Assembly (NCBI GenBank): GCA_001822215.1
Contig: MHQD01000026.1
Span: 1 to 42,047, forward strand
DNA: 42,047 nucleotides
Source: Candidatus Sungbacteria bacterium RIFCSPHIGHO2_01_FULL_50_25
Lineage (GTDB): Bacteria > Patescibacteriota > Minisyncoccia > Sungbacterales > HO2-52-23
Direction: 5' to 3'
Program-made: the position numbers and the translations under genes
Part shown: piece after piece, positions 4,356-32,741 of the stretch
How positions within the stretch are numbered: the first letter of the stretch is position 1
How the letters are laid out: each line of letters starts with the position of its first letter
The notes under the pieces: model-generated
Databases searched by the model: none
Told to the model about the DNA's origin: nothing
The model's input: only the letters and a program-made list of their open reading frames with translations

Positions 4356-4421
4356 CCCGGTAGTAGTCTTCGACCATTCTCGTATTTGCCGCATTGTGGC
4401 AGTCGAAGAGTTACTACCGGG
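4356..4421 (+). other. long imperfect hairpin 14 nt downstream of the uvrB stop
   Basis: CCCGGTAGTAGTCTTCGAC (4356-4374) pairs with GTCGAAGAGTTACTACCGGG (4402-4421). That is about 19 bp with a one-nt bulge and a 27-nt loop, followed by TTT. It could be a terminator or processing structure. Confidence 0.35.
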
Positions 4422-4490
4422 TTTGAGCGCGCAGCAAAAATTCGGGACCGAATTAAGAAACCCTCAGGCGAAAAATAAATATTAATTTTG

Positions 4491-4519
4491 TTGACTTTTT
4501 TATCAATACGTAGTAATCT
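4491..4519 (+). promoter_or_regulatory. sigma70-like promoter of rpsT
   Basis: TTGACT (4491-4496), a 17-nt spacer, then TAATCT (4514-4519). The rpsT ATG is at 4528, so the transcript would have almost no leader and no SD. Confidence 0.45.
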
Positions 4520-4527
4520 TTTGTGGT

Positions 4528-4797
4528 ATGCCAATCACAAAATCAGCAAAAAAAGCGCTTAGGCAGTCAGAACGCCGCCGCGAGCGAAATACAGAAAAAA
4601 AAGAAGCATATCGAATGCTTCTTAGAAAAATCGAGAAATCCGTATCAACCGGGAAACTTGACGGTATTGATGCCGCACTCTCCGCATTTTATAAAGCAAT
4701 AGATAAAGCGGCAAAGACCCGCGTCATCGCAACACACAAGGCGTCTCGTTTCAAATCCCGCGCGGCAAAACTCGTTTCTGGAGCGCTTAAAAAATGA
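4528..4797 (+). CDS. rpsT: 30S ribosomal protein S20
   Basis: An 89-aa basic protein. MPITKSAKKALRQSERRRERN is the S20 N-terminal signature. Confidence 0.95.
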   Translation: MPITKSAKKALRQSERRRERNTEKKEAYRMLLRKIEKSVSTGKLDGIDAALSAFYKAIDKAAKTRVIATHKASRFKSRAAKLVSGALKK

Positions 4798-4812
4798 AGC
4801 GCATAAAAACGC

Positions 4813-5799: not shown

Positions 5800-6066
5800 C
5801 TACGGCGAGCCGATGAGTATTATGATGAGAACGATCGCGGCGTAGACCGCGATGGTCCACGGGCCGATGCGCGCCCAGAGGAGATGGTGAAGCTCTGTGA
5901 GCCGCGGCGCGGTCCATTCCTGAAGAATGAGAACCGGACGGACAGCAACCGTGCGGGCGGCATCTCGCCACCCAAGGACCATGAATGAGAACCACAGGGG
6001 TGAAGAGGCAAGAACCCACGCGAGCGCCACCGGAAGAACCAGAATCCACGCGATCAAGTACGCCAT
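5800..6066 (-). CDS. small hypothetical membrane protein (88 aa)
   Basis: Hydrophobic helices are present (AYLIAWILVLPVALAWVLA, WTIAVYAAIVLIIILI). A canonical SD, AAAGGAGGTG (6071-6080), sits 4 nt before the ATG, and there is a strong upstream promoter. Confidence 0.65.
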   Translation of the reverse strand: MAYLIAWILVLPVALAWVLASSPLWFSFMVLGWRDAARTVAVRPVLILQEWTAPRLTELHHLLWARIGPWTIAVYAAIVLIIILIGSP

Positions 6067-6118: not shown

Positions 6119-6166
6119 ATATTGCGCTTTTGCTTTGATTTTCAAGCCCGAAAGAAAAAAACATGA

Positions 6167-6204
6167 ATGTATCTATCCTACGCTATAGCGTAGGATAGAT
6201 ACAT
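6167..6204. repeat. 38-bp perfect palindrome, copy 1 (variant A)
   Basis: ATGTATCTATCCTACGCTATAGCGTAGGATAGATACAT. Its two 19-nt halves are exact reverse complements. It lies 50 nt downstream of the polA stop. On the minus strand it is followed by TCATGTTTTTTT. Confidence 0.95.
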
Positions 6205-6253
6205 CGGTATTTTTCAAACTCCTAAAAATTTAATCACTCTTTTTCCGGTATTC

Positions 6254-8854
6254 CTATTTTCCCCAATTGGGGCCGGTGTGGACATCAATAACAAGCGGAA
6301 CTTTTAAACTCGCCGCGCTTTCCATAAGCGCTTTTATTTTTTCCACCGCCGTGTCCGCAAAATCTTTTTGTATCTCAAACACGAGCTCGTCGTGCACCTG
6401 CAAAAGCATGCGGATTTTTTCTTCGAGGTTTTCCCGGCGCACCCACTCATCAATTTTTATCATCGCGAGCTTTACAATGTCGCCTGTCGCTGTCCCCTGT
6501 ATCGGCATATTTACCGCCATCCGCTCTGCCTCGCGCTTCACTTGCCAATTAGAAGAATAAATTTCCGGAATATAGCGGCGGCGGCCAAAAAGCGTCTCGA
6601 CGTATCCGTTCGCTTCGGCAAATTCTTTTGTTTCCTGGATGTAGTGTGCAATTCCGGAAAAATCGCGGAAGTATTCGTCTATAAACGCGCGCGCTTCATC
6701 CCGCCCCATGCCGGCGGAGGCCGAAAGGGCTGATGCACCCATGCCGTAGAGAATCCCGAAATTCAATGTTTTGGCCGCGCGCCTTTGCTCTGCCGTCACG
6801 CTCCCAAGCGGGATATTGAAAACCTCGGAGGCAGTCGCGGCGTGAATATCGCGCCCCGCGCGAAACGCCTCGATCATTTTTTTGTCGCCCGCCATGTGGG
6901 CCGCAACCCGAAGCTCAATTTGGGAATAGTCGAACGAGGCGAGGACAAAACCGGAAGACGCAACAAACGCTTTCCGGATTTCTTTTCCGTACTCTGACAT
7001 AATCGGAATATTCTGAAGATTCGGGTCTTGTGAAGAGAGGCGTCCGGTTGAGGTTCCGGTTTGGTTAAACGTCGTATGGATCCGCCCTGTTTTCGGATTC
7101 ACAAGCGCGGGAAGCGCATCGATATACGTTGATTCGAGCTTCGCGAGCTCGCGGTAGGAAAGAATATTCGCAATAATCGGATGGGTGTCCTTCAGCTTCT
7201 CGAGCTCTGACTCGCGCGTGGATATTTTTCCGCCTTTTTGGGTTTTCTTGAGCCCCTTTGTTCCGATTTCCAATTTCTCAAACAAAATTCGGGAAAGCTG
7301 CTGGGTTGAATTTATGTTGAATTCCTCCTTCGCAGCCGAAAAAATGTCTTTCTCGAGTTTTTTGATTTTTCCAGAAATTTCTCCGGAGAGCTTGCGCAAA
7401 AACGCGGAGTCAAGAGAAATGCCCCGCTCCTCCATTCTGAAAAGAACCGGAATAAGGGGCACTTCGATTTCGTCAAACACTTTGCGGAGCCTGCCTTCCG
7501 AAAGCTTTTTTTCGCAAAAATCAATGAGACTGAAAAAATGCGCGCCGAAGAGCGCGGGGTCATCCCCTCCGGAGATCCGAAACTCCCGCATAAGAAGGGT
7601 CTCGGGAGAAAAATCTCGGGAACCCGAAGACGCGACATAGGCCGCGATCAGAATATCAAACGAGATGGCGGTTCCAATGCCGCGGCTTCGAAGGTGTTTT
7701 AAAACGTGCTTTCCGTCGTAGGCCGCGATGGTCCCTTCAAATGCGCTTCGCGCCGCGCGGCCCGAAAGAACCGCGTCATCAATCCAATATACCTCTTCTT
7801 CCCCGCGGATAACCGCATAGAGTTCGCGGCCCTTGAGGAAAAAACCGGCTCTGCCTGCGCGAACCCCTTCCGCAATGCCCCCGAAATCCTGAATCGCGGT
7901 TATCTTCTTTGTTGAAGCGTTCGTGCTTGAAAAAAAGCTTGCTTGCGCGTCTTTTGGTTCTGGCGCGGATTTCACGCTACTCATTCTTTTTGCGAGACTT
8001 GAAAACCCGAACCGCTCGAGAACGCGGGGAATATTAGGATGCGCCTCGGGGGCATTTACCGCCGCCGCATCAAGCGAAAACTCAACCGGCACCTCGGTGT
8101 GGATCGTAGAAAGCTCTTTGGAAATCTTTGCGTCTTTTTCGCCTTCGAGAAGTTTTTTGACAACTGATTCGGAAATTGATTTTGGCCGCGTACGCTTCTT
8201 GAGCGCCTTATACATTTGCTCGATCGAACCAAACTCTTGAATAAGTTCTGTTGCGGTTTTTTCTCCGATCCCTTTGACGCCCCGGATATTGTCCGAGGGA
8301 TCGCCTTTGAGCGCCTTAAAATCAATGAGTTTGCGAGGCGTAAGGCCGTAGCGCTCGCGAACCGCGGCCTCGTCGTAGATGACCGTATCGGTAATCCCTT
8401 TTCGCATGGCATACACTTTGACGCGCGGCCGCACAAGCTGAAACGCATCATTGTCCCCGGTCACAATAAGAACTTCGATATCCTTTTTACTCTCGAATTT
8501 TTTCGCAAGCGTCCCTATGATGTCGTCCGCCTCATATCCTTCTCTTTGAATGATCGGGATACTGAAGGCATCCAGCACTTCGCGAACATATGAAAACTGA
8601 GGCGCTAAATCAGACGGCGTTTCTGGACGCTGTGCTTTGTAGCGCTCATAGACGACGTGGCGAAACGTGGGGCCCGCAAGGTCGAACGCGGCCGCGATAT
8701 AGTCGGGTTTAAGCTCTCGCAAAATCCGCAAAAGAATCGAGGTAAAGCCGTACACCGCGCCCACAGGCTCGCCAGAAGGCGACGTCAATGGCGGAAGCGC
8801 GTGATACGCCCGATGTATTATTGCATGGGTATCGAGTAAAATAAGTTTCTTCAT
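6254..8854 (-). CDS. polA: DNA polymerase I
   Basis: 866 aa. It has a 5'-nuclease domain (LLDTHAIIHRAYHA, GDPSDNIRGVKGIGEKTA) and polymerase motifs A DYSQIELRV, B RRAAKTLNFGILYG and C QVHDELVFE. I cannot find the ExoI DxE motif of the 3'-5' exonuclease domain (the region reads GFFLKGRELYAV). The enzyme is therefore probably proofreading-deficient, like Taq/Bst-type Pol I. Confidence 0.97.
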   Translation of the reverse strand: MKKLILLDTHAIIHRAYHALPPLTSPSGEPVGAVYGFTSILLRILRELKPDYIAAAFDLAGPTFRHVVYERYKAQRPETPSDLAPQFSYVREVLDAFSIPIIQREGYEADDIIGTLAKKFESKKDIEVLIVTGDNDAFQLVRPRVKVYAMRKGITDTVIYDEAAVRERYGLTPRKLIDFKALKGDPSDNIRGVKGIGEKTATELIQEFGSIEQMYKALKKRTRPKSISESVVKKLLEGEKDAKISKELSTIHTEVPVEFSLDAAAVNAPEAHPNIPRVLERFGFSSLAKRMSSVKSAPEPKDAQASFFSSTNASTKKITAIQDFGGIAEGVRAGRAGFFLKGRELYAVIRGEEEVYWIDDAVLSGRAARSAFEGTIAAYDGKHVLKHLRSRGIGTAISFDILIAAYVASSGSRDFSPETLLMREFRISGGDDPALFGAHFFSLIDFCEKKLSEGRLRKVFDEIEVPLIPVLFRMEERGISLDSAFLRKLSGEISGKIKKLEKDIFSAAKEEFNINSTQQLSRILFEKLEIGTKGLKKTQKGGKISTRESELEKLKDTHPIIANILSYRELAKLESTYIDALPALVNPKTGRIHTTFNQTGTSTGRLSSQDPNLQNIPIMSEYGKEIRKAFVASSGFVLASFDYSQIELRVAAHMAGDKKMIEAFRAGRDIHAATASEVFNIPLGSVTAEQRRAAKTLNFGILYGMGASALSASAGMGRDEARAFIDEYFRDFSGIAHYIQETKEFAEANGYVETLFGRRRYIPEIYSSNWQVKREAERMAVNMPIQGTATGDIVKLAMIKIDEWVRRENLEEKIRMLLQVHDELVFEIQKDFADTAVEKIKALMESAASLKVPLVIDVHTGPNWGK

Positions 8855-8941
8855 ACACTAAAGGAAATTTACAATTCTCAATTTTCAATGAATGTCTCAA
8901 TGAAACATTGCTCAAATGGAAAATTTATTGAAAATTGAAAA

Positions 8942-9394
8942 TTATTTACGCAGAATATAGATATCTCGTTCACTCTCCCGCTTCCCGTGCCGAAACCGGA
9001 CCCATAACGCATTTCTTGGAATCAATCGGCGGATCCGCTCGGGCCACTCGACTACCACAATCGCCCGCGTATCTTTAAAAATTTCTTTTACGCCAAGGGG
9101 CGCGATGTCGCACGCGGAACGCATGCGATAGCAGTCAATATGGACAAAATGCCGAGTCCATATGCGCTTTTGGACCGCGTATATTTTCATTATGACAAAT
9201 GTCGGACTCAATACGCGCTCGCGGATGCCGAGCGCTCGAGCAAACCCTTGCGCAAATGTTGTTTTCCCCGCGCCGAGATTTCCGGAAAGCGCGATAATTG
9301 CCGCGCCTTTCCCGACGCGCGCGCGCGCCACTTCTTTTGCAAGAATCGAGGCAATTTTTTCGGTCTCCCTCTTGTTTTTCGTGCGGATGTGCAT
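8942..9394 (-). CDS. tsaE: tRNA t6A37 biosynthesis protein TsaE
   Basis: 150 aa. The P-loop LSGNLGAGKTTFAQGFARALG and the SPTF motif are typical of TsaE/YjeE. Confidence 0.88.
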   Translation of the reverse strand: MHIRTKNKRETEKIASILAKEVARARVGKGAAIIALSGNLGAGKTTFAQGFARALGIRERVLSPTFVIMKIYAVQKRIWTRHFVHIDCYRMRSACDIAPLGVKEIFKDTRAIVVVEWPERIRRLIPRNALWVRFRHGKRESERDIYILRK

Positions 9395-9507
9395 ATTGAA
9401 AGCGTAGCAGAGGCGCTCCTTAGCGTCTAGAAATCGAAGTTGCCGAAAACGGGTTTGCGCGCCCGCGCGCCTTTTTCTTTCAACAAAGAAATTTCCAGAA
9501 AAATTGC

Positions 9508-9545
9508 ATGTATCTATGCTGCGCTATAGCGTAGCATAGATACAT
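9508..9545. repeat. 38-bp palindrome, copy 2 (variant B, one G:T mismatch)
   Basis: ATGTATCTATGCTGCGCTATAGCGTAGCATAGATACAT. It is the same element as 6167-6204 with C11>G and G28>C, plus one unpaired change (A14>G). It is followed by GCAATTTTT on the minus strand. Confidence 0.95.
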
Positions 9546-9586: not shown

Positions 9587-9620
9587 AAACGCCGCCGAGG
9601 TTTGACCTCAAGCGGCGTTT
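9587..9620 (-). terminator. two-tier hairpin downstream of the 9729..10550 gene
   Basis: AAACGCCGC (9587-9595) pairs with GCGGCGTTT (9612-9620). This encloses GAGGT-TTG-ACCTC. On the minus strand the hairpin is followed by a T-rich run, TTTCCCTTTCTTC. Confidence 0.45.
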
Positions 9621-9728: not shown

Positions 9729-10550
9729 CTACTGATGTCCGCCGCCGCCAGAAAACCCCTCCCAGTACCCGAACCGGCCCGCCTCCTGCTCCCAGGCCCG
9801 CCTCTCGCGAGCCAGGTTGTCCTCAAGCCGGCGATTCTGATACCAGTCGGTGAAGGCGCGATTCTCAGCGCCCTCGAACCTTCCGTTCATGTAGCCGAGG
9901 GAGCTTCTGCACAGGTGCGGGTAGGCCTGGCAGGTCGAAATGTGGGGAGTTGGCCCACCAACGACCGGCCTACCACCCCAGTTGGGCATCTGGGGCGGGA
10001 CACCCCACTGGTACCCACCACGATTCCTACCGCCGCGATGTCCTCCGTGCCCGCCCACTGGCACCACCTTGTAGTGATGGTGCTCATGCACCACCACGCG
10101 ACCACCACACGGCGGACCCGGCTGGATGCACATCACCGGCCCGGTGATGGGACCTGGCTGCGGATAGCCCGAAACAGGAGCGTACTGCGGAGCCGGAGCG
10201 TACTGCCCCTGGCCACCGCAGTAGACCTGACCGGTCCGCGGGTCACGGTAGACCTCGTCCCGACCACAGCTGATCGGAACGTTGTCCGTTGCCTCGAGCG
10301 CGAACTGGATGATGCCGCCGATTGCGGCACCTGCCATCGCGCCCTTGGCAGGCCCGATGTCCTTGCCGAGAATCGCGCCGCCAGCTGCCCCGGCAGCAGC
10401 GCCGATCGCGCCCGCGCCGAGGACCCTCTCCAACGACGAGTTACCATTGAAGATATCACCGAGGCCACCCGCCTCGACTCGGGTCGCGCCCACCATGGGC
10501 GCGAACATGACCGCGACGAGCGCGATCACAACCGCCACGAACTTTTTCAT
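9729..10550 (-). CDS. secreted glycine-zipper protein with a Gly/His/Pro-rich C-terminal half
   Basis: ORF 9729..10556. The second ATG (10550) lies 6 nt after AAGGAG. It has a signal peptide MKKFVAVVIALVAVMFAPMVGATRVEA and a glycine zipper GAGAIGAAAGAAGGAILGKDIGPAKGAMAGAAIGGII, followed by HEHHHYKVVPVGGHGGHRGGRNRGG. The gene is GC3-rich. Confidence 0.7.
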   Translation of the reverse strand: MKKFVAVVIALVAVMFAPMVGATRVEAGGLGDIFNGNSSLERVLGAGAIGAAAGAAGGAILGKDIGPAKGAMAGAAIGGIIQFALEATDNVPISCGRDEVYRDPRTGQVYCGGQGQYAPAPQYAPVSGYPQPGPITGPVMCIQPGPPCGGRVVVHEHHHYKVVPVGGHGGHRGGRNRGGYQWGVPPQMPNWGGRPVVGGPTPHISTCQAYPHLCRSSLGYMNGRFEGAENRAFTDWYQNRRLEDNLARERRAWEQEAGRFGYWEGFSGGGGHQ

Positions 10551-10798
10551 GGCCATCTCCTTGCCCCAAGAGGGGGCGGGTTAACGGGTCAAGCACACAA
10601 AGGTGCCACCCGCCCGTACGAGTGGCACCTCCCTACATTTCTGCAGGGGGACCGCTCGTACTCAGGAATGCCGTATCTTAGCTGTTTTCCAGCACTTCCG
10701 AAGAAGCACCTTTAACAGTTCAGATTAAATGGCTGGTAATTACTTAGGGAACATACACACATTATACAGGAAATAGACAAAAAGGTCAAGTTATTGTG

Positions 10799-12055: not shown

Positions 12056-13723
12056 ATGCCTGATATCTCTGATGAAAAATTCAATCGCCGCCTCGCGTCC
12101 CTTCGAAAAAAGGAATCGGAAGACGTGGCGAAAATTGTTGCGGATCGCTACAAGCTTCCGTACATAAACCTTTTGTTATTTCCGGTTGAGATCGATGCGG
12201 TGAAAATCCTCCCGGAAGAGCGCGCTCGTTTCGGCGAATGCCTCGTATTCCAGGCAGTCGGGCGGCATATAAAAATCGCGGTGCGGAATCCCGACCGTGA
12301 AGAGACGCAAGGGGTCCTGAAGCATCTCGAGGAAGACCGGTATACGGTTGAGGTGTATATCGGGTCAAAAGAAGGATTGGAACATGGCTGGGAATTTTAC
12401 CGAAAGGTCCCCTCGGAAGAGCACACCGAGGCGGGCGCGGTCCGGGTATCGAGCGAGAAGATAAACTCAATCCGCGAGATGCTGAAAGACATCTCTGCGG
12501 TGAAAGAGCGCATCGAACGGACATTTTACGGAAGAACAACGGATTCTCTCGAGGTATTGATTGCGGGATCCCTTGCGGTCAATGCGTCTGACATTCACAT
12601 CGAGCCCCAGCTTGAGACCGCGCGGCTCCGCTACCGCATGGACGGAGTCTTGCAAGACGTGATCGAGCTTCCGAAAAAACTCTATACGCTGCTCCTTTCG
12701 CGGATTAAGCTCATTTCCGAAATGAAATTGAATATCCACGATCAGGCGCAGGACGGACGCTTCACGATCAAGACGAATATTGAAATCGAGGTCCGCGCAT
12801 CCATGCTTCCCGGACCCTACGGAGAAAATATCGTTCTTCGGATATTGAATCCGGAATCAATCCGCGTGACATTCGAAGAAATGGGCATGCGGCCGTGGAT
12901 GATCAAGGATCTCGACCGGGAACTTAGGCGCCCGAACGGCATGATTCTCACAACCGGCCCCACGGGATCAGGGAAAACAACGACGCTCTATGCGTTTATC
13001 CAGAAAGTGTACAACCCGGAGGTAAAAGTCATCACCATTGAAGACCCGATCGAATACCATCTGAAGGGGATTGAGCAAACGCAGGTTCACCCGGAGGAGG
13101 GGTATGACTTCGCGCGCGGACTTCGTTCGATCGTGCGCCAGGACCCGGACGTCATCCTCGTCGGAGAAATCCGCGATCTCGAGACCGCGGAAACCGCGAT
13201 GAACGCGGCGCTCACCGGGCACCTCGTCTTCTCGACCCTGCACACGAATAACGCCGCGGGAACCGTGCCTCGCTTGATAAACCTCGGCGTGAACCCCGCA
13301 ATCATCGCGCCCGCCATAAACGTTTCCATGGCACAGCGCCTGGTGCGCCGCCTCTGCAACGACTGCAAAACAAAAACGAATATTGGCGCGCCGCTTGAGA
13401 AACGAATCGCAGACGAGCTCAAAGACCTTCCGAAAACAATCCCGCTCCCCCCAAAAGAAGAATGGAACGTGTCGGAGGCGCGCACGGATGGCGACTGCAA
13501 AACCTGCAACGGCATCGGCTATAAGGGGCGCATCGCCGTATTTGAAATCATCTTGATCGATGAGAAAATCCAGGAGCTTATTTTGAAATCGCCCTCGGAA
13601 TATGAAATCAAGCGCGAGGCGCGCCGCCAGGGGCAGATGACGCTTCGCGAAGACGGAATATTGAAAATAATCGCCGGGGTCACGAATTTTAACGAGGTCG
13701 ATCGCGTCATAGGAACTGAATAA
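12056..13723 (+). CDS. type II/IV secretion (PilB/GspE family) hexameric ATPase
   Basis: 555 aa. It has Walker A GPTGSGKTTT, the Asp box ITIEDPIEY, Walker B DPDVILVGEIRD, the His box GHLVFSTLHTN and a tetracysteine motif CNDC...CKTC. Confidence 0.92.
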   Translation: MPDISDEKFNRRLASLRKKESEDVAKIVADRYKLPYINLLLFPVEIDAVKILPEERARFGECLVFQAVGRHIKIAVRNPDREETQGVLKHLEEDRYTVEVYIGSKEGLEHGWEFYRKVPSEEHTEAGAVRVSSEKINSIREMLKDISAVKERIERTFYGRTTDSLEVLIAGSLAVNASDIHIEPQLETARLRYRMDGVLQDVIELPKKLYTLLLSRIKLISEMKLNIHDQAQDGRFTIKTNIEIEVRASMLPGPYGENIVLRILNPESIRVTFEEMGMRPWMIKDLDRELRRPNGMILTTGPTGSGKTTTLYAFIQKVYNPEVKVITIEDPIEYHLKGIEQTQVHPEEGYDFARGLRSIVRQDPDVILVGEIRDLETAETAMNAALTGHLVFSTLHTNNAAGTVPRLINLGVNPAIIAPAINVSMAQRLVRRLCNDCKTKTNIGAPLEKRIADELKDLPKTIPLPPKEEWNVSEARTDGDCKTCNGIGYKGRIAVFEIILIDEKIQELILKSPSEYEIKREARRQGQMTLREDGILKIIAGVTNFNEVDRVIGTE

Positions 13724-13727: not shown

Positions 13728-13927
13728 TGCCGGCCGAGGCCGTGGACAATTACTCCGGTATAGGAACACGGAGGTTAGGATTGTTCCCAGGCACTGTCCA
13801 GCTCGCTACACTCGATATATCGAAATTTCGAAATATCAAGTACGGAGAACCAGACAGCCCTGGTGTAACAATCCCCTTTAAGGCGCCTCGTGAGATTTGC
13901 CTTAATTGTCCACGACCTCGATCGGCA
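13728..13927 (+). ncRNA. candidate rod-shaped structured RNA with 6S-like architecture (alternatively a MITE-like inverted-repeat element)
   Basis: The closing stem pairs 13728-13752 with 13903-13927: 12 contiguous bp (CGTGGACAATTA/TAATTGTCCACG) plus 11 more pairs including one G:U. A large internal loop follows (25 nt 5' side, 28 nt 3' side). The inner stems are GGATTGTT/AACAATCC (13778-85 with 13867-74), CCAGG/CCTGG and CTGTC/GACAG. The apical region is AT-rich. An intrinsic terminator follows immediately. Confidence 0.35.
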
Positions 13928-17081: not shown

Positions 17082-17201
17082 ATGGATCAAGACATTTCAA
17101 ACTACGACGAAGAGGAGGACGTCGACTACGAGGACGACTACGACGAAGAGGAAGAGGACGACAAAGAGGATACAGACGACCTTGAGGGCGACGAGGAATA
17201 G
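17082..17201 (+). CDS. candidate 39-aa hyper-acidic micro-ORF
   Basis: Hand translation: MDQDISNYDEEEDVDYEDDYDEEEEDDKEDTDDLEGDEE*. The GAN codons are strictly in frame and the ORF is followed by a strong terminator. No SD was recognised. It is too short for the ORF track. Confidence 0.35.
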   Translation: MDQDISNYDEEEDVDYEDDYDEEEEDDKEDTDDLEGDEE

Positions 17202-21142: not shown

Positions 21143-22243
21143 TTATGTTTGGCGAATTGGCATCACCACGTAGGTGAAAGACGCGTCGTTTTTGTTTTTT
21201 ATGAGCGCGGGGGTGTTGGGGTCGTTTGCTCCGAAAAAAAGTTCGTCTTCGTCAACGCCGGAAACGCCGTCGAGGAGGAATCGGTGATTAAATTGCATGG
21301 TGAGCGGTTTTCCGTTTATCGTTGTTGGAATTGCCGCGGTGCTCGCCCCGAGTTCGCTGTTTTGCGAAGTAACTTCCAGTTTTTTTTGAGAAAAAGAAAG
21401 GTGCACGTCTTGCAGTTTTGAAGAAAAAATACTCGACGAGCGCACGGCATTTATAAGTTCTTCTTTGGGGATGAAAAGGGATGTTGAAAACGTTTTTGGT
21501 ATTATTGCGTTATATTCCGGAAACGCGCCGTCGATGAGCCGGGATAGCACTTTAATATTTTCGTTTTTTATTTCGACTTGATTTTCCCCGAAAGAAAGTG
21601 TTAATTTCACGTCTTCTGAGCTGAAAATTTTAGAAAGCTCTTGGCTTATTTTTGTGGGGAGAGTGCAGTTTTTTGTTGTTTCCTCTTGTTGTGGTTCTGT
21701 TTTTACTTTTTTTTCCGCGAGGCGGAATGTGTCGGTTGCCGCGACAATATATTCGTTTTTTGAGAGCCGTAAGAACACTCCGTTCAGCTCCGGCTTAAAT
21801 TCAGAAAAAGAAATGGCCGGAATCACTCGCTCAAGCGCCGCTGAAAAATCGGCGGATTGGATGTAATACTGCTCTGTTTTTTTTATTTTTGGAATAATTG
21901 GAAAGTCGTCCGGATCCAATCCGTTTATTTTGCCGTCGCGAACGGCCGTTTTTATGATTAAATTTTTGTTTTTCTCTTCAAGGTGCACCTCTTTTTCTTT
22001 TATTGACTGAATGAATTGTTGAAGTATTCGCGCCGGAACACTAATAACCCCCCTACTACTTACCTGCGCAGGGACGGATATTTGAAACGCGTATTCGAGA
22101 TTTGTGGCTGTAATACAAAGCGTATTTTCTTGCGCTTCTAATAAAAGAGTGCTCACTATCGGTAAATTTATATTTTTACCAGTAAAGCGCTCCGCGAGCG
22201 ATATCGCATTTTCTAAAACTTCTTTTACACAGACACACTTCAT
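21143..22243 (-). CDS. dnaN: DNA polymerase III beta sliding clamp
   Basis: 366 aa. The N-terminus reads MKCVCVKEVLENAISLAERFTGKNINLPIVSTLLLEA..LCITATNLEYAF. It lies immediately downstream of dnaA. Confidence 0.93.
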   Translation of the reverse strand: MKCVCVKEVLENAISLAERFTGKNINLPIVSTLLLEAQENTLCITATNLEYAFQISVPAQVSSRGVISVPARILQQFIQSIKEKEVHLEEKNKNLIIKTAVRDGKINGLDPDDFPIIPKIKKTEQYYIQSADFSAALERVIPAISFSEFKPELNGVFLRLSKNEYIVAATDTFRLAEKKVKTEPQQEETTKNCTLPTKISQELSKIFSSEDVKLTLSFGENQVEIKNENIKVLSRLIDGAFPEYNAIIPKTFSTSLFIPKEELINAVRSSSIFSSKLQDVHLSFSQKKLEVTSQNSELGASTAAIPTTINGKPLTMQFNHRFLLDGVSGVDEDELFFGANDPNTPALIKNKNDASFTYVVMPIRQT

Positions 22244-22364
22244 AATAATAAATATAGTTTATATACTATTACTTATTGTTATTATTAGTAGGGAAAACAA
22301 AAGGAAAGCTTTTTAAAATCAATACACAAAAGGAATATACCTAAAAACATCTATACGGGAAAGA

Positions 22365-22373
22365 TGTGAATAA
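22365..22373. promoter_or_regulatory. consensus DnaA box in the AT-rich dnaA-dnaN spacer
   Basis: TGTGAATAA is the reverse complement of TTATTCACA and matches TTATNCACA at 9/9 positions. The surrounding 154-nt spacer is very AT-rich. Confidence 0.45.
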
Positions 22374-22397
22374 AATGGTGATATAAAAAAATAAAAT

Positions 22398-23777
22398 TTA
22401 TTCACTAAAAATTTTTTCCCGTATCAACCTAATTTCTTCTTCCAACTCGATGTTTTTCTTCAGCTCCTCCCCAATTTTTTCACAAGAATGAATCGCGGTC
22501 GTATGGTCCCGGCCCCCGAACCTGTCTCCGATAGACGGGTACGAAAATTTAAGTTCGTTGCGCAAAAGGAACATGGCGATCTGGCGCGGCTTCACAAAAT
22601 CTTTTTTTCGGGAACTCGTCATCAAATCTCGCTCCTTAATATCATAAAAATCAGATACCGATTTTATTATTTTTTTTGCGGAAACGAATTTTTTAGGAGT
22701 GAGAGCGTGAGTAACAAGGAGTTTTTCAACCTGTTCTTTGGTGACGGGGGTGTTTGATATTTTCGCGCTCATAACCACCTTATTCAAAACCCCCTCAAGC
22801 TCGCGGATATTCGTTTTTATTCGCTCCGCGATGAGGCGGAGCGCGTCTTCGGGGACCAAAACCTTTTTTTCGTCGGCTTTTGTCTTGAGGATGAGAAAAC
22901 GCGTTTCCACGTCCGGAACCCCGATATCCGCGATCATTCCCCCTTCAAAACGAGATTTTAAGCGTTCTTCCAGTGTCGCGATTGCCTGTGGCGGGCGATC
23001 GGAAGAAATGATAATCTGCTTGTTTTTTTCATAGAGCGCATTAAACGTGTGAAAAAACTCCTCCTGCATTTTCTCAGTCCGAGCAATAAATTGAATATCA
23101 TCCATGATTAATAAATCTACCGCCCGGTATTTTTCTTTCAACCGGTTCATCTCCTGGTTTTTCAGCGCATCAACAACCTCCCCCATGTATTTTTCTGACG
23201 AAAGGTATTTAACCTTTTTCTGGGGAAATTGTTTCAGTATTTCGTTTCCGACCGCCTGAATAAGATGCGTTTTCCCGAGTCCGACCCCGCCGTAGATAAA
23301 AAACGGATTATACCCGATTCCGGGGTTTTTAATTATCGATTGCGCCGCCGCATACGCCAGCTCGTTGAAAGAACCGACAATAAAATTCGTAAACGAGTAG
23401 CGCGGGTTTAAATTTGTCTCCGGGTCAACAGAAAGTTCCCGAATCGATGCGTCGTCCGACTGGGAAGGAGCGGCGGCGGATGAACGCCGTTTTTTCGCCT
23501 GGTCTTTTTGTATGGACGACAGGCCGCGCTCCGGGCGCGCAATAACATACGAAACATCTTTTATTTCAGGCGTGATTTCCCGCAGCGCGTGGAGTATGGA
23601 CTTGTGGTATTTGTTTTGGAGCCATTCCTTTACAAATCCATTCGGAACATATACAGTCGCAAGGCCCGCGTCCACCCCCATAATACCGGTTTCTTGAAAC
23701 CACGTTATGAAATTCGGCCGCGAGATCGCTGGTTCAAGTTTCGCAAGTGTCGCTTGCCAAAGTTCGTTACGTTCCAT
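22398..23777 (-). CDS. dnaA: chromosomal replication initiator protein DnaA
   Basis: 459 aa. It has the AAA+ Walker A GGVGLGKTHL, Walker B DLLIMDDIQF and a C-terminal DNA-binding domain (FGGRDHTTAIHSCEKI). Confidence 0.97.
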   Translation of the reverse strand: MERNELWQATLAKLEPAISRPNFITWFQETGIMGVDAGLATVYVPNGFVKEWLQNKYHKSILHALREITPEIKDVSYVIARPERGLSSIQKDQAKKRRSSAAAPSQSDDASIRELSVDPETNLNPRYSFTNFIVGSFNELAYAAAQSIIKNPGIGYNPFFIYGGVGLGKTHLIQAVGNEILKQFPQKKVKYLSSEKYMGEVVDALKNQEMNRLKEKYRAVDLLIMDDIQFIARTEKMQEEFFHTFNALYEKNKQIIISSDRPPQAIATLEERLKSRFEGGMIADIGVPDVETRFLILKTKADEKKVLVPEDALRLIAERIKTNIRELEGVLNKVVMSAKISNTPVTKEQVEKLLVTHALTPKKFVSAKKIIKSVSDFYDIKERDLMTSSRKKDFVKPRQIAMFLLRNELKFSYPSIGDRFGGRDHTTAIHSCEKIGEELKKNIELEEEIRLIREKIFSE

Positions 23778-23952
23778 GGACGAGAGGTAAAAAGTTTGTA
23801 ATGGAAAAAATGAAGCCCCACGAGATACCGCGTATTATACCGAAGTGCGAGCAAAAGACTCTAGTGCACATATGTGGAAATGCTGTTGAAGATATGTTAA
23901 TTATTATGTAGACTAAAACAACCGGTCGAAAATCCTAAAAGACAAAAAAGAC

Positions 23953-24087
23953 ATGTCTGTTACGTATCAACCATCAAAAAGGAAACGGAAGAAAACTCAC
24001 GGATTCCGCGCCCGGATGAAGTCGAGTCGGGGGAGGCGAGTCCTTTCGAGACGAAGAAAGAAGGGGCGCGCGCGCATGGCGGTATAA
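23953..24087 (+). CDS. rpmH: 50S ribosomal protein L34
   Basis: Hand translation, 44 aa: [44 protein letters not shown]. It is too short for the ORF track. It occupies the classical position upstream of rnpA. Confidence 0.93.
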
Positions 24088-24095
24088 AACAAAAA

Positions 24096-24422
24096 ATGCG
24101 GCTGGATCGACTGAGCGAAAAAAACGACATTAAGAAACTTTTTCGAGGCGGACGAAGGGCGCGAACTCCCCTTTTTTCTTTTCTCTGGCTGAAGAACGAC
24201 CGGAAACACCAAAGAATCCTTTGCGTCGTCACGAAAAAAAACATAAAGTCGTCTGTCGCGAGAAACAGAGTACGGCGCCGCGTCAACGAGTGGTTTCGTA
24301 AAAACAAAGACCCCTCTTCCCCCATCGATATTTTGGTTGTTGTTGACGGGAAGGCGGCGGGCGCCCCCAAAAAAGCATTTTATAAAGACCTGTCAGATGG
24401 AGCAAAAAAAATTACTTTATAA
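24096..24422 (+). CDS. rnpA: ribonuclease P protein component
   Basis: A 108-aa basic protein with the RNR-type motif [14 protein letters not shown]. It follows rpmH. Confidence 0.9.
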
Positions 24423-24675
24423 GAACAAAAGACCGCACATTCTTCGCTTTTACCAAGCACTTGTGTCGCCTGACACCGGCGTGTTTCGCCACTTTTTCGT
24501 TTCTCTCGGTTTTTTTGCGCCGCAGAGCGGGTGCCGATTTGTTCCGTCCTGTTCAGACTACGCCGCCGAATCGATTAGTCAATATGGACTTTTTCGTGGA
24601 AGCGTGATGCTGCTTCGCCGGATCTTTCGTTGCCACCCGTTCTCTCGCGGCGGATACGACCCGGTTTTAAAATAG
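24397..24675 (+). CDS. yidD: membrane protein insertion efficiency factor YidD
   Basis: It has the conserved core [31 protein letters not shown]. The likely start is the internal ATG at 24397 of ORF 24337..24675. Confidence 0.88.
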
Positions 24676-24681
24676 ATTCGC

Positions 24682-25440
24682 ATGGAAATTCTTTCAACGC
24701 TCTATACCGAAGCAATTTGGAGGCCGCTATTTAGTGCCATCGTGTTTTTATATTCCACCATCCCCGGCGGGGATTTCGGCGTTACCGTAATCGTATTTAC
24801 TGTTCTGTTTCGCATCGTTTCGTTTCCGCTCCATTGGAAAGCGCGCCGCGCACAGCAGGCCCTCGCCTTTATCCAGCCCGAAATGAAAAAAATTCAGGAA
24901 AAGCACAAAAACGACCGGGAAGCGCAGGGGCGCGCGCTTATGGAGCTCTATGCGCAAAAAAAAGTAAATCCGTTTTCCGGCTGCCTGCCAATACTCATTC
25001 AGCTTCCCATCCTCATCGCGCTTTTCCAAATATTTCAAGGGGGGTTTGATGCAAATAACCTCGCGTATATATATTCGTTCATACCAAGCCCCGAATCCAT
25101 CAACCCGCTGGCCTTCGGGTTTCTCGATCTCTCAAAAGGGAACATCGTATTGGGATTTTTTGCGGCGCTGTCGCAGTATATTCAGACGAAAATCACCCTT
25201 CCTCCCAAACCCCCGCCGTCCGACAAGCCCGATTTTTCAAGCATGTTTCAAAAGCAAACACTTTACATGCTTCCGCTCCTTGTCCTCTTTTGGTCCTACA
25301 CCCTGCCCGCGGCGCTCACGTTCTACTGGACAATTTCAAATATTTTTGGTATTGTGCAGGACACCGTCTTGAATCGCAGTGCAAAAAAAAGCAGTTCGGG
25401 CGACGGCGCGAGCAATGGATATTCAAACACTCACAAATGA
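24682..25440 (+). CDS. yidC: YidC/Oxa1 family membrane protein insertase (short form)
   Basis: 252 aa. PLHWKARRAQQALAFIQPEMKKIQEKHKND..MELYAQKKVNPFSGCLPILIQLPILIALF is the YidC core. Confidence 0.9.
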   Translation: MEILSTLYTEAIWRPLFSAIVFLYSTIPGGDFGVTVIVFTVLFRIVSFPLHWKARRAQQALAFIQPEMKKIQEKHKNDREAQGRALMELYAQKKVNPFSGCLPILIQLPILIALFQIFQGGFDANNLAYIYSFIPSPESINPLAFGFLDLSKGNIVLGFFAALSQYIQTKITLPPKPPPSDKPDFSSMFQKQTLYMLPLLVLFWSYTLPAALTFYWTISNIFGIVQDTVLNRSAKKSSSGDGASNGYSNTHK

Positions 25441-27145: not shown

Positions 27146-27628
27146 CTATTTTTTCTTCTCAATAAGCGGGAGGTTTATATCAAAATTTTTCACTAAATTC
27201 GGGTTAATGATAGAAAGAGTGAGGTATGATACAAGCGCCACCACGAGCCCAAGCACTGCGTTATACATCGCTTTTTTCGCTTCCGCGGTTCCCCCCTCGG
27301 TCGGCATCATGTAGCGTATCGCGCCGTAGGTAAACATAAAAAACGCGGTAAGCGCGACAAGACTTATGCCGTAGGTATAGATTTTCGAAAAAAGATCGCT
27401 CGGCTTTGCAACGTCGGTCAGAAATTCAAGTCCGGGAATGGCCTTGGACGCCGCCGCGACGCCAAGGTCAACGCACTGCCCCCCCGTCGCGCTTTTGCAG
27501 AGAATCTGGGCGTGAACAGCAAAGGGAGCCGCCACAACGATTCCGAAAACAAGCATAACCCCTGCTGCTCTGGCTCCCCGATTGAGGTTTCTCAATAATA
27601 AGGCGAAAAAAAGCGTTGGTGCGCGCAT
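27146..27628 (-). CDS. candidate VirB2/TrbC-type T4SS pilin
   Basis: 160 aa. A long signal sequence ends in AVHA. A Cys pair follows (CKSATGGQC), then two hydrophobic helices (IYTYGISLVALTAFFMFTYGAI, AVLGLVVALVSYLTLSII). This is the VirB2-like topology, and the gene is in a VirB3/B4/B6 neighbourhood. Confidence 0.5.
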   Translation of the reverse strand: MRAPTLFFALLLRNLNRGARAAGVMLVFGIVVAAPFAVHAQILCKSATGGQCVDLGVAAASKAIPGLEFLTDVAKPSDLFSKIYTYGISLVALTAFFMFTYGAIRYMMPTEGGTAEAKKAMYNAVLGLVVALVSYLTLSIINPNLVKNFDINLPLIEKKK

Positions 27629-27629
27629 G

Positions 27630-28667
27630 CTATTGTATGAATATGGTAAGCGATTTTATTACCGGAAGGAGAAAGGCGTTTTTCAATGAGGACGCGGTCG
27701 CGGACACCGAAAGCGAAACGGCTTGGATTCCTTCGGTCTTTAATGTAAGAAACTGCGGGTTTTGGGCGGCGGGTTCTATCGACGTTCCCCCGACCTTCCA
27801 GGCGTACGCGATATTTTTTCTTCCTCCGGGGAAAAAGAAGGGCTCCGCAACAAGGTCGATGAGCTCCCCTTTTGCTGCGTGGATGAGCGTGTGCGCGGAG
27901 CGGTATTCTGTTCCGCCGACAGGAGAATAGCGATAGACCGACACCAGCGGATTGCGGTTTATGATGAAAAGCGACCCCTCCTTTTTTACGGTTTTTCCGA
28001 GGTCTTCAATTGAGACGCGCACCCAGTGAGACCCGTTCGGGATTTTCGACGTCTGTATTCCGATAGACTGTTTCCCGATCCCCGACGCGAACTTTTTTTC
28101 ATCCCCCAGACTCCATTGGTAGACGAGATTTTTCGGGTCAATCATTTTTCCGCCAGAAGCGATTTCTGGAAGCGCGGTGACATATACGGTTGATCCAGGA
28201 ACCGCGAGCGCTTTTCCGGTAAACCACGCGGGTACGTGCGTATCCGCGTGCCAGACGAGCGAAAGATCGGATACGCGGATCGTTGCAGACATTGTGGCGA
28301 CTTGTTTGTCCAAGGCGGTTGCGCGTACCGATACGCTTATCGCGCTTCCGATCCCTCCCGCGGTTATTTCCGCGGAGTACTTTCCCCTGCCTGAAAGGTC
28401 GGAACGAAATTGCCCGTTTATGGTCCACTCAAAGAATGTCGTATCTTTGTTGAATATCGGGGTTACTGCTTGAAGAATCACTTTTTCTCCCGGGGCAGGC
28501 GAAGACGGGACCGCGGTGATTGACGCCGGCGGCTCGAGTTGCGGAAAAGAAATCTGCGCGCCCGCGAAAAAAGGAAGAGCGAACAAAAACGACCCGATTG
28601 CGGCAGTTTGTACGAGATGCCCCATACCGCCTATTATATACCGCTTTTTCTCTCTTGTGGACGTCAT
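27630..28667 (-). CDS. hypothetical secreted beta-rich protein
   Basis: 345 aa with a signal peptide (AAIGSFLFALPFFAGAQ). ATGA overlap with the upstream VirB4 gene indicates translational coupling. No family recognised. Confidence 0.65.
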   Translation of the reverse strand: MTSTREKKRYIIGGMGHLVQTAAIGSFLFALPFFAGAQISFPQLEPPASITAVPSSPAPGEKVILQAVTPIFNKDTTFFEWTINGQFRSDLSGRGKYSAEITAGGIGSAISVSVRATALDKQVATMSATIRVSDLSLVWHADTHVPAWFTGKALAVPGSTVYVTALPEIASGGKMIDPKNLVYQWSLGDEKKFASGIGKQSIGIQTSKIPNGSHWVRVSIEDLGKTVKKEGSLFIINRNPLVSVYRYSPVGGTEYRSAHTLIHAAKGELIDLVAEPFFFPGGRKNIAYAWKVGGTSIEPAAQNPQFLTLKTEGIQAVSLSVSATASSLKNAFLLPVIKSLTIFIQ

Positions 28668-30484
28668 GATATTGATTGCGAATGATACTCCTCGCGCGCT
28701 TTTTTAATCATGAGAATTTGGGCAGGGTCAGACGTTATGACCTGGTCTTCCGAATAGGACGCGAGCACCTTCATCGCGACGTGCTTTAGGCCGGCAAAGA
28801 AAATGCCTTCGCCGCGGTCCGCTTCCAAAAGAATAAGCTTTTCTTCTTCCGTGAGATTGAACGTGTCTTTCACGAATTCGATTGTCGCGGGGGACTGTTT
28901 GAATAGAATCTGGAGGGACGAGTTCGTGATGATCGGCTTCCCGTACGTCGAGTTCATGAAGTCGCCGACGTCCTGGGTGATCGTCGCAAGGCCGAGATAG
29001 TATTTGCGCGCGCGCTTCGCGATGCCGAAAAGAAACGAGCCGCCGTCCTCGTTTTTCAAAAGCCACCACGCTTCATCCACAAGCAAAATCCGCTTTTTCA
29101 GGGTGGTCCTCACGACGTTCCAGATGTAGTGAAGCACGATATACATGCCGACCGAGCGAAGCTCGTCCTCCATGTCGCGGACGGAAAACACCACGAGGCG
29201 GTTTTTGATTTCCACGTTCGTCGGCTGGTTCAAAAACCCCGACCACGTGCCGGAGGTGTATTTTTTGAGCCGCACCGCGATTTCCTCGCCGCCAACCGTG
29301 TTTGCAAGAATAAGCTCGAGGTCCGACAGTGTCGGCGGCGAAATCTGCGAAAAATCGGATTCGGGAGTGATGTCCTTTGATGCGTATGTTTCCGTGATCG
29401 CCTGGTCAAGAATCGCGTCTTCTTCCGGCGTAAGCCCCCCGAGCATGATGCGGAAAAGCCCGATCAGGTTTACGATGTTTGACCTCAAAACGTCTGCGGC
29501 CGATTCGTCTTCGCGCGGGACCGGAAGGTCAAAGGGATTTATATGGTTTTTCGAAGAAAGCGAGATATTGATGTAGGACCCGCCGACGACTTCCGCCAAA
29601 TATTCGTATTCGCGCTCCGGGTCGATCACGATGACGTCAACCCCCCACATGAGCGAGCGCAGAATTTCAAGTTTCGAAAAATAGCTTTTTCCTCCGCCGG
29701 AGACGCCGAACACCACGGAGTTCGCGTTGGGAAGGGAAAACCGGTCAAAGAGGATCAAACTGTTATTGTGGCTGTTGATTCCGTAAAGAATCCCCTTGTT
29801 TGAAGTGAGGTCAAAGGAAACAAACGGGAACGTGGAGGACACGGGAGACGAGTTTAAATAGGTATGCACCCCCAAGCGGTCCATGGCGAGCGGCAGGACC
29901 GATTGGAACCCCTCGAGCTGCTGGAAAAGAGCGGTTTTCGTGTATACAAGGCGCGATTCAAGGACCGATTTTATGTCTGCCTCCGCTTTATTGAGCTCCT
30001 CTTCGGATTTTCCGTAGACCGTAATATAGAGACCGAATGAAAATAGGCGCTCCTGTGCCTGTTGGAGCTTGTCGCGAAGCTCTTCGAGGTTCCGGTACGC
30101 CGCATCAAGCATCGGATCGCGCACAAGCCCCCGCGTTTCCCGGTCGGATATTTGCGACTGGACCTCCGCGGTTTTCCGGCGAAGGGTCCGCATAATGGTT
30201 GCGGTGTCCACGGGGTGGATGTGCATCGCGATATCGAAGAGTTTGTCCATGTTGACGACCGGGCTGAACCATCCAGTGTGAAGATAGCGCGGATAGGAAA
30301 AGACGAACATGGTGCGCGCGAATTTTTCCCCGATCCGTATGAACGTCGGGCTTACCTCAAGGGCCGAGGGCGCGAGGATGTCTTGGAGCCCGATTCCTTC
30401 CCCGCGCGACATATCCGACGGGAGGATCGAGCGCATCATCTCGTCTTCTTTCTCTTTTTCGTCTTTTTTTCCGAAAAATGCCAT
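28664..30484 (-). CDS. VirB4/TrbE/Tn916-Orf16-type conjugative ATPase, middle and C-terminal ATPase part
   Basis: It has Walker A VVFGVSGGGKSYF and Walker B RILLVDEAWWLL. The middle domain reads IRIGEKFARTMFVFSYPRYLHTGWFSPV. The track starts at TTG 30523; the first ATG is at 30484. Confidence 0.9.
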   Translation of the reverse strand: MAFFGKKDEKEKEDEMMRSILPSDMSRGEGIGLQDILAPSALEVSPTFIRIGEKFARTMFVFSYPRYLHTGWFSPVVNMDKLFDIAMHIHPVDTATIMRTLRRKTAEVQSQISDRETRGLVRDPMLDAAYRNLEELRDKLQQAQERLFSFGLYITVYGKSEEELNKAEADIKSVLESRLVYTKTALFQQLEGFQSVLPLAMDRLGVHTYLNSSPVSSTFPFVSFDLTSNKGILYGINSHNNSLILFDRFSLPNANSVVFGVSGGGKSYFSKLEILRSLMWGVDVIVIDPEREYEYLAEVVGGSYINISLSSKNHINPFDLPVPREDESAADVLRSNIVNLIGLFRIMLGGLTPEEDAILDQAITETYASKDITPESDFSQISPPTLSDLELILANTVGGEEIAVRLKKYTSGTWSGFLNQPTNVEIKNRLVVFSVRDMEDELRSVGMYIVLHYIWNVVRTTLKKRILLVDEAWWLLKNEDGGSFLFGIAKRARKYYLGLATITQDVGDFMNSTYGKPIITNSSLQILFKQSPATIEFVKDTFNLTEEEKLILLEADRGEGIFFAGLKHVAMKVLASYSEDQVITSDPAQILMIKKAREEYHSQSIS

Positions 30485-30491
30485 AGGGGTT

Positions 30492-31148: not shown

Positions 31149-31150
31149 GG

Positions 31151-31612: not shown

Positions 31613-31636
31613 TTAGTATGTTCTAATGTATAAGAT

Positions 31637-32731: not shown

Positions 32732-32741
32732 GATAATCGCG

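Follow-up and report, generated by a model that had tools for sequence, protein, structure and literature searches.

A family of self-complementary palindromes flanks a PaaX-like gene in Patescibacteria and recurs in other intergenic gaps

Genomes of the candidate phyla radiation (CPR; Patescibacteria) are tiny, encode few recognisable regulators and come from organisms with no genetic system, and to our knowledge almost nothing is known of their cis-regulatory or repeat elements. In other bacteria, Correia/NEMIS (Neisseria), ERIC and BOX are palindromic repeats resembling miniature inverted-repeat transposable elements (MITEs) that carry protein-binding or regulatory signals; they are 100–150 bp or longer, have terminal inverted repeats and target-site duplications, and are mobilised in trans by insertion sequence (IS) transposases. 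Repetitive extragenic palindromic (REP) elements with their RAYT proteins, and parS sites with ParB, are further systems with which a palindrome family can be compared. The Escherichia coli repressor PaaX binds the inverted repeat TGATTC-N27-GAATCA and represses its own promoter, and its central domain is described only as a repressor dimerisation motif (PMC9493321). Here we describe a 38-bp palindrome that occurs four times in a 42,047-nt contig of Candidatus Sungbacteria bacterium RIFCSPHIGHO2_01_FULL_50_25 (MHQD01000026.1; this whole stretch is called the window below), together with its relatives elsewhere in Patescibacteria. Two of the copies flank the gene for a short PaaX-like protein, here called mini-PaaX. 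With moderate confidence, and judging from sequence patterns, we favour a reading in which the palindromes are cognate sites of mini-PaaX, the conserved flanking pair is probably an autoregulatory core, and the copies elsewhere arose from it by copy and paste and do not last long; the symmetry of the arms would be maintained by hairpin formation.

A mismatch-tolerant search placed the element at 6167–6204 (copy 1), 9508–9545 (copy 2), 41219–41256 (copy 3) and 41904–41941 (copy 4), and at no other position of the window. The 38-bp pattern found no match in any of 100 dinucleotide-preserving shuffles of the window. Copies 1 and 3 are identical (variant A, ATGTATCTATCCTACGCTATAGCGTAGGATAGATACAT). 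Copy 4 (variant B) differs from variant A only by C11>G and G28>C, which leave the palindrome perfect, and copy 2 is the copy-4 variant with one further change at position 14. The resulting mismatch is G:T on the plus strand and A·C on the minus strand, the latter being the sense strand for the adjoining genes. All four copies are intergenic by the gene calls. Thus the account given by an earlier sequence-only reading of the window, which had listed the four copies, the A and B variants, the G:T change in copy 2 and the intergenic positions, is accurate in every detail. The perfect palindrome is longer than 38 bp at copy 3 (46 bp, 41215–41260) and copy 4 (42 bp, 41902–41943), and the arms of copy 1 extend imperfectly through A/T runs to 6157–6214. 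As single-stranded DNA, the copies form hairpins of −16 to −24 kcal/mol, with z-scores of −6 to −10. Elsewhere in the window there are no degenerate copies or lone half-sites, the core GCTATAGC being confined to the four copies, and CTATAG is not significantly avoided outside the elements (2.3 occurrences expected). Rfam and tRNA scans of the window gave no matches. No additional site lies within 10 kb past either window end, which makes 4 copies in ~62 kb.

Copies 3 and 4 bracket the mini-PaaX gene (41322–41900, plus strand), whose product we presume to be the cognate binding protein. Copy 3 lies 62–65 nt upstream of the start codon. Copy 4 starts 1 nt past the stop, in a convergent gap where the next gene, ksgA/RsmA on the minus strand, faces it with its 3′ end. 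The 192-aa protein combines a winged helix with a PaaX_M domain: it matches PF20803 (PaaX_M, Cas2-like) at 70 bits against a cut-off of 24 (E=1.7e-19), has no match to PaaX_C (PF08223), and scores 28 bits against the PaaX equivalog model TIGR02277, whose cut-off is 264.55. Its 192 residues compare with 279 model positions in TIGR02277 and 305–316 residues in the E. coli PaaX chain. An AlphaFold2 model (predicted local distance difference test, pLDDT, 85) consists of an N-terminal winged helix, a linker helix and a ferredoxin-like domain; the top PDB structure match of this model is E. coli PaaX (8a39, E=1.7e-5), which a sequence profile also matches, followed by winged-helix regulators. The winged helix weakly resembles those of the centromere binders AspA and TubR, and Pfam and profile scans found no HUH/Y1 domain in the protein. 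In a library of 50%-identity clusters, homologues of ~180–195 aa account for 821 clusters at E≤1e-30 and 3364 at E≤1e-10. The Cas2-type FDIPE and SVF/SVW motifs are conserved in the family, and D116, E119, R125, S143 and V144 are invariant.

The flanking arrangement recurs throughout this protein family. At ~21 distinct mini-PaaX loci, covering ~30–100% identity, a long palindrome lies both upstream (0–200 nt) and downstream (1–120 nt) of the gene, and flanking on both sides holds in nearly every mini-PaaX lineage examined, including all those whose two flanks could be read; we estimate the chance of meeting the 8-mer core in such flanks at ~1%. Upstream of the orthologues in L062 and L082 (L-numbers denote retrieved loci or contigs), copy 3 is kept in the form of compensated variants. 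Distant homologues are flanked by other palindromes: P0031 by TGATACATCATT..GCTATAGC..AATGATGTATCA, P0032 on both sides by the CGATCG-centred AAACATTTTT-TCACGATCGGAT-AAAAATGTTT, and P0036 on both sides by AACATACAATAA..CTATAG..TTATTGTATGTT. A 241-aa homologue with PaaX_C has no flanking palindrome. We treat mini-PaaX and the palindromes as a cognate pair mainly because the flanking palindrome co-varies with the protein in this way. The sequence-only reading had likened the element to REP/PATE-type or regulator sites and had raised a PaaX-like protein as a possible partner, and the genomic association of a PaaX-like gene with flanking palindromes throughout the family bears this out.

We then asked how far the element extends, using the pattern ATCTAT-N5-GCTATAGC-N5-ATAGAT, where N5 stands for five variable bases, against one genome per GTDB species and against metagenome contigs. 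The GTDB scan returned 12 loci in 8 Patescibacteria metagenome-assembled genomes (MAGs), among them Zambryskibacteria, Paceibacterota and Parcubacteria GW2011_GWA1_47_8, with 1–4 strict-pattern copies per genome, and the metagenome scan returned 56 further loci; in all, the family is represented in these 8 genomes and in ~50 metagenome contigs. Since the metagenome scan missed some contigs known to bear the element, little can be concluded from a contig's absence. In the retrieved loci, genes were called as rough open reading frames (ORFs) unless the collection supplied its own calls. Removal of duplicates and of a phage palindrome judged unrelated left 57 distinct sites. Across Parcubacteria-type lineages the boxes ATCTAT, GCTATAGC and ATAGAT are invariant, giving 20 invariant positions. 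The N5 and outer arm positions carry only 0.2–0.5 bit of information, yet they are 72–97% Watson–Crick complementary to their mirror positions. In a 58-site tally that still included the phage palindrome, N5 was perfectly complementary in 37 sites with 28 distinct N5 words, and complementarity fell to background ~27–28 nt from the centre. The covariation score over the 57 sites was 0.448, compared with 0.155 ± 0.011 after shuffling (0 of 500 shuffles reached the observed value), and it was 0.11–0.14 when the partners were slid by 1–3 columns.

Compensation is also visible at closer range. Within the window genome, CAZYRJ01 and JBBTUT01, the differences between copies comprise 21 compensated and 5 one-sided changes. 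In the strain L019, whose mini-PaaX is 100% identical to that of the window, the site orthologous to copy 4 reads GCTCC..GGAGC against GCTAC..GTAGC in the window; only three differences separate the two strains over 121 nt here, and two of them form a mirror pair. The paired C:G to G:C change had been taken as a sign of constraint on self-complementarity or symmetric binding and not of chance, a view upheld by the covariation over 57 sites, by the comparisons within genomes and by the L019 double substitution.

Two lineages behave differently: in JACOVQ01 and CAYITW01 the boxes are kept and the N5 arms are not complementary. Because of these lineages we separate two constraints, in which the boxes would serve sequence recognition and the self-complementarity hairpin formation. 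Invariant boxes interspersed with near-informationless N5 and outer positions point to sequence-specific recognition and not to a hairpin alone. G:U pairs are not enriched among the non-Watson–Crick positions of the aligned sites; on this ground, and given the A·C mismatch of copy 2 on the sense strand, a reading at the RNA level was rejected. The variable 5′-arm positions of the 57 aligned sites are strongly depleted in G on either strand, being mostly A, T or C, and the 3′ arm is thus depleted in C. None of the explanations considered here accounts for this depletion.

The phage palindrome came from a scan of viral contigs, whose six matches were all one 30-bp palindrome in a low-GC phage group; we judged it unrelated and left it out of the statistics. 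This palindrome (ATCTATGCACTGCTATAGCAGTGCATAGAT; L095–L100, also L047, L057, L069 and L078) fits the search pattern used for the family. It is conserved among phage contigs with a G+C content of 0.32–0.36 and is further present in TARA and other metagenome contigs, stands without a PaaX-like gene, and has flanks that are not palindromic. Literature on PaaX with Cas2-like, CPR or Patescibacteria palindromes yielded no description of the 38-bp palindromes or of the protein subfamily, and the palindrome family, widespread in the CPR, is apparently undescribed.

Comparison with E. coli PaaX places the flanking sites in a familiar setting. A symmetric site of ~40 bp beside the gene is in character for the PaaX family, given the widely spaced repeat and the autorepression of the E. 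coli protein (PMC9493321). The geometry of the putative sites is PaaX-compatible, with inverted ATCTAT boxes 18 bp apart, a total span of 38–40 bp and a position 0–130 nt upstream of the protein's own gene. Mini-PaaX shares the two N-terminal domains of E. coli PaaX, which has the closest fold, and in both cases a long, widely spaced inverted repeat (~39 bp) has one site beside the gene for the protein. Unlike E. coli PaaX, mini-PaaX lacks the phenylacetyl-CoA-binding C-terminal domain, falls far below the equivalog cut-off and has no paa genes nearby. The sites differ as well: in addition to their 18-bp box spacing, the palindromes at mini-PaaX have an extra conserved centre, lie on both sides of the gene, are perfectly self-complementary in spacer and flanks, and have dispersed copies.

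The upstream palindrome runs into the mini-PaaX start codon in five loci (L010, L011, L070, L073 and L074). Its final two bases are part of the ATG (ATAGATGTATGGG), so that a Shine-Dalgarno sequence would not fit, and a TAnnAT hexamer lies in the arm at −12 to −7. For this subfamily the arrangement suggests leaderless transcription that begins inside the palindrome. In L073 a divergent gene starts likewise at the other end of the palindrome. As a general rule, a promoter inside the palindrome was dropped from consideration, since the hexamer needs variable N5 bases and is lost in the GGAGG variants of L019, L041 and L082.

Other mini-PaaX loci carry further palindromes or mobile genes. L023 has two tandem upstream palindromes (4404–4433 and 4493–4530) and, 1.3 kb from its mini-PaaX gene, an IS200/IS605-type Y1_Tnp gene (L023:2656–3357) beside a YafQ-like toxin gene. 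No other Y1_Tnp gene was seen, and the palindromes do not stand on either side of this one, on which ground a link between the family and Y1 transposases was rejected. A perfect 52-bp palindrome of unrelated sequence (CCCCCAAATTCCCCAACTCGGACCCATGGGTCCGAGTTGGGGAATTTGGGGG) lies beside a mini-PaaX homologue in L033 (~1064–1115), and a near-perfect, CGATCG-centred palindrome of 52 bp lies at 3682–3733 of L062, a close relative of the window organism. These two may represent other protein–palindrome pairs of a like kind.

The remaining window copies stand away from the mini-PaaX gene. Copy 1 has the polA stop (6254, minus strand) on one side and, on the other, the start of an 88-aa gene (5800–6066, minus strand) with a promoter-like site. 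Copy 2, with its one arm mismatch, lies 113 nt upstream of the tsaE start (9394, minus strand), between tsaE and a GC-rich terminator-like hairpin (~9601–9620; read by eye and not listed by the terminator scan) that trails a 275-aa gene (9729–10556, minus strand). Dispersed copies have counterparts beside the gene: copy 1 equals copy 3, and copy 2 nearly matches copy 4. The outer types ACAC and CCCC of CAZYRJ01 are each represented by one gene-flanking and one dispersed copy. Elements identical over 38–41 nt also occur on contigs that share nothing else with the region (A in L044 and L056; B in L031/L045 and L081). That each dispersed copy matches one of the two gene-flanking copies looks meaningful. 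The order of A then B along the plus strand, to which the sequence-only reading had drawn attention, is seen in two pairs only and has no statistical weight.

Positions of dispersed copies change between relatives while the gene-flanking pair is kept across the family. L041, a relative with ~80% protein identity, is collinear with the window over 1.2–15.5 kb and has ordinary GC-rich hairpins at the orthologous positions of copies 1 and 2. Its own palindrome separates rpsT from holA, which in the window stand 15 bp apart (4798–4812), and none of the three dispersed sites is common to the two. Since L041 has the same genes without either copy, the bracketing of polA–tsaE by copies 1 and 2, singled out in the sequence-only reading, is incidental. 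At strain level the copies are stable: copy 1 is identical in eight further assemblies (two more are too short to reach the position), copy 2 is fixed in 10 assemblies with its mismatch included, and no filled-versus-empty site polymorphism was seen among 10 strain-level assemblies. New copies would have to come from a copying process, because 20 invariant positions and self-complementary arms cannot arise repeatedly by point mutation. No transposase gene is associated with the sites among the genes examined, and the listed sites of the window clade show no target-site duplication or conserved asymmetric flank, any flank similarity being inverted and not direct. Like the MITE-like repeats, the elements are small, non-coding, hairpin-forming and intergenic, come and go between close relatives, and at times take on a role as terminator, promoter or binding site; they differ in having a unit of ~40 bp, no target-site duplication and a tie to a regulator-like gene.

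The genomic context of the dispersed copies gives no single function. Sites not associated with mini-PaaX lie in 16 tandem, 5 divergent and 2 convergent gaps, against a background of 140, 50 and 35 (p=0.66; uniform ORF calls in the same loci). A regulon was rejected, as the genes whose 5′ ends face the sites are heterogeneous and include aminoacyl-tRNA synthetases, gyrB, tsaE, Dus, FtsW, HhH-GPD and others. Copy 1 alone passes a terminator scan, on both strands, and is followed on the minus strand by a TTTGCA-17-TATAAT promoter-like site; copies 2–4 fail the scan and have no T-run adjoining the stem. Copies 1 and 2 had been proposed as terminators of polA and of the gene at 9729. This holds for copy 1 to the extent that it is terminator-like; the scan was negative for copy 2, and the gene at 9729 has a terminator-like hairpin of its own, the GC-rich one at ~9601–9620. 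The accompanying argument, that a pure terminator role is insufficient for the family, agrees with copy 1 being its only terminator-like copy in the window. Among eight dispersed copies listed for the clade, five have A-runs upstream, T-runs downstream or both (flanks read by eye), and occasional use of dispersed copies as terminators is plausible. Neither an operator of a regulon nor a terminator family fits the whole set of dispersed copies.

What the sequences show is that the family exists, that it covaries, that it is linked to the gene and that its sites turn over; binding, autoregulation and the process that keeps the arms symmetric are inferences from this. Mini-PaaX, probably as a dimer or a dimer of dimers, would recognise the three boxes. 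Each 38-bp site contains four CTAT/ATAG motifs with a 10-bp spacing, one helical turn (CTAT at positions 7–10 and 17–20, ATAG at 19–22 and 29–32), which suggests that a dimer or two dimers bind along a single face of the helix. Copies 3 and 4 would be the ancient, conserved core. The upstream site would most likely mediate autoregulation by occluding the promoter, and looping to the downstream site may strengthen the effect. Copies 1 and 2 would be young copy-paste derivatives of the master variants A and B in other intergenic gaps, tolerated there or secondarily used, for example copy 1 as the polA terminator. Hairpin or cruciform formation would keep the arm positions not contacted by the protein self-complementary, one-sided changes being lost or transferred to the opposite arm, through template switching or repair within the palindrome or through selection for extrusion.

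Several observations weigh against this proposal. The link between protein and palindrome is solely a genomic association. A dimeric regulator leaves palindromic non-contacted positions and copy-specific flanks unexplained, so the extra assumption of hairpins is needed, and the uncomplementary arms of JACOVQ01 and CAYITW01 indicate that perfect symmetry is not universally required. A simple autorepressor does not need the downstream site in a convergent gap (copy 4). Given the heterogeneous housekeeping neighbours, the lack of a coherent regulon and the background-like gap types, most dispersed sites may have no regulatory role. Finally, no mobilising enzyme has been identified, which leaves the making of new copies unexplained.

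The last point is where the strongest rival in our analysis, a REPtron-like system, would do better. Here mini-PaaX would not, or not only, be a repressor: it would mobilise the palindromes, its Cas2-fold domain nicking or processing extruded hairpins. The gene and the hairpins on its two sides would form a master locus, domesticated and passed on vertically, the analogue of a RAYT gene flanked by REPs but with another catalytic fold. We regard this as unlikely, although it explains the copying and the flanked layout better than the cognate-site reading. REP/RAYT and the present family both have short intergenic palindromes with a sequence signature and compensated stem positions, dispersed between genes and inside operons at positions not conserved between related species. 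In each, one vertically inherited gene has copies of the dispersed element on its two sides. A gene tightly bracketed by two elements is the REPtron layout, and dispersed copies identical to the flanking variants, turning over at ~80% identity while the flanking pair persists, are what such a system would leave behind. Hairpin covariation is predicted by selection at the propagation step if the elements move as hairpins; the implausibility of a de novo origin for a 20-position motif with self-complementary arms implies some copying mechanism; and the Cas2-type motifs and the five invariant residues noted above also count in its favour. Yet the protein is a winged helix with a Cas2-like PaaX_M domain and not an HUH Y1 transposase (PF01797), the domain that defines RAYT, and the only role described for the corresponding central domain of the E. 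coli repressor is dimerisation (PMC9493321). No activity is known for mini-PaaX. The palindromes are perfect, have a zero-length spacer and read the same on both strands, whereas REPs are imperfect with a 5′ GTAG guide; GTAG is found only in the N5 variant of the window and is not conserved across the family. Copy number appears low, in units to tens (4 in ~62 kb, 1–4 strict matches per GTDB genome), where REPs reach tens to hundreds per genome, and neither a target-site duplication, a conserved asymmetric flank nor filled-versus-empty polymorphism in the 10 strain-level assemblies is visible. A bolder version is more doubtful still: mini-PaaX would be the enzyme of a new REPtron-like system spanning the CPR radiation, one that recognises its cognate palindromes as extruded hairpins and cuts or copies them, its gene a domesticated mobile element outside the HUH, DDE, serine and tyrosine classes, and the dispersed copies its non-autonomous progeny.

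Two further explanations were weighed. The hairpins could act independently of any protein, as bidirectional intrinsic terminators, mRNA 3′-end stabilisers or insulators, the association with a PaaX-like gene being incidental. Very stable stems, the many sites only a few nucleotides from stop codons, the A-runs or T-runs at five of the eight listed copies, and copy 1, terminator-like on both strands between the polA stop and a promoter-like site, all fit this idea. We nonetheless think it improbable, since a terminator needs no 20 invariant positions across deeply diverged lineages, the intrinsic-terminator signature, a G+C-rich hairpin at a gene 3′ end with a T-run directly after it, is absent from copies 2–4, and 5 of 23 non-PaaX sites lie between divergent genes, the background fraction. 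The missing G:U enrichment and the A·C mismatch of copy 2 also argue against it, as does the persistence of the flanking rule with changed palindromes in distant homologues. Alternatively, the palindromes could be centromere-like sites marking the origin-proximal region, with mini-PaaX as a parS-binding-type or nucleoid-organising winged-helix protein. Like parS, they are palindromic sites, few per genome, with one or more beside the gene for the binding protein, and in the window they surround the origin: dnaA, dnaN, rpmH and yidC are all present, the four sites lie at about −17.7, −14.4, +17.3 and +18.0 kb, near-symmetric about the dnaA–rpmH gap, and none follows within 10 kb past the window ends. 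L041 has a single site in the same neighbourhood at another position, gyrB or gyrA lies near the mini-PaaX gene in L011 and L025, and the weak likeness of the winged helix to AspA and TubR points the same way. This is the least probable of the explanations weighed here, because dnaA and dnaN are in none of the other site loci (2–15 kb each), the A and B elements recur unchanged in at least four contigs otherwise unrelated to the 62-kb region, and the symmetry is seen in one genome only. Moreover, parS is 16 bp long and near-invariant within a genome and ParB is a CTPase, whereas mini-PaaX has another fold and its sites span 38–50 bp with variable, compensated arms.

If the palindromes are cognate sites of mini-PaaX, a protein family of at least 800 clusters (50% identity) gains a concrete candidate DNA partner, and the motif of 20 invariant positions can be searched for in any CPR genome. 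The sites provide an unusually clean natural case of compensatory evolution in DNA palindromes, both within genomes and at one orthologous site between strains, and bear on whether cruciform or hairpin extrusion and template-switch correction act in vivo in CPR bacteria. Should the protein prove to process hairpins, this would be a REP/RAYT-like system on a Cas2 fold, relevant to the recruitment of Cas2 and PaaX-type domains, and only in that case a further departure from known systems.

The window itself is the dnaA/oriC region of a Parcubacteria-type CPR/Patescibacteria genome. It encodes RuvA, UvrB, S20, HolA, PolA, TsaE, a T2SSE ATPase, RuvB, YebC, RuvC, TyrS and PBP1, as well as DnaN, DnaA, YidC, T4SS-pilin-like proteins and DUF5663. 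The genes dnaN (21143–22243) and dnaA (22398–23777) are on the minus strand, and rpmH (from ~23954) and yidC (24682–25440) are on the plus strand; an rnpA-like ORF also lies in the 21143–25440 region, and G+C falls to 0.40–0.44 at 21–24 kb. Because rpmH is divergent from dnaA, we place a probable replication origin near 23.8–24.0 kb, in the AT-rich gap 23778–23953, which contains the DnaA-box-like TGTGGAAA. Gene calls of independent assemblies put the 275-aa gene, tsaE, polA, the 88-aa gene and holA all on the minus strand.

At 27146–37898 and 12056–13723, a long minus-strand block of large genes without Pfam matches adjoins genes for T4SS-pilin-like and PrgI-like proteins and the T2SSE ATPase, the kind of pilus or secretion cluster that is usual in CPR genomes. 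A 32-bp quasi-palindrome (13810–13841, ACTCGATATATCGAAATTTCGAAATATCAAGT), unrelated to the 38-bp family, lies between the T2SSE ATPase gene and ruvB and is nested in a 25-nt inverted repeat (13728–13752 and 13903–13927, 88% complementary). At the syntenic gap of L041 (13192–13236) there is a different palindromic repeat, GTAACTAGTAAC, and the palindrome in this gap may take part in regulating ruvB. An 18-nt unit rich in GAC, GAA and GAG (acidic codons if translated) is repeated five times head to tail at 17101–17190, directly after ruvC and the tyrS 3′ end.

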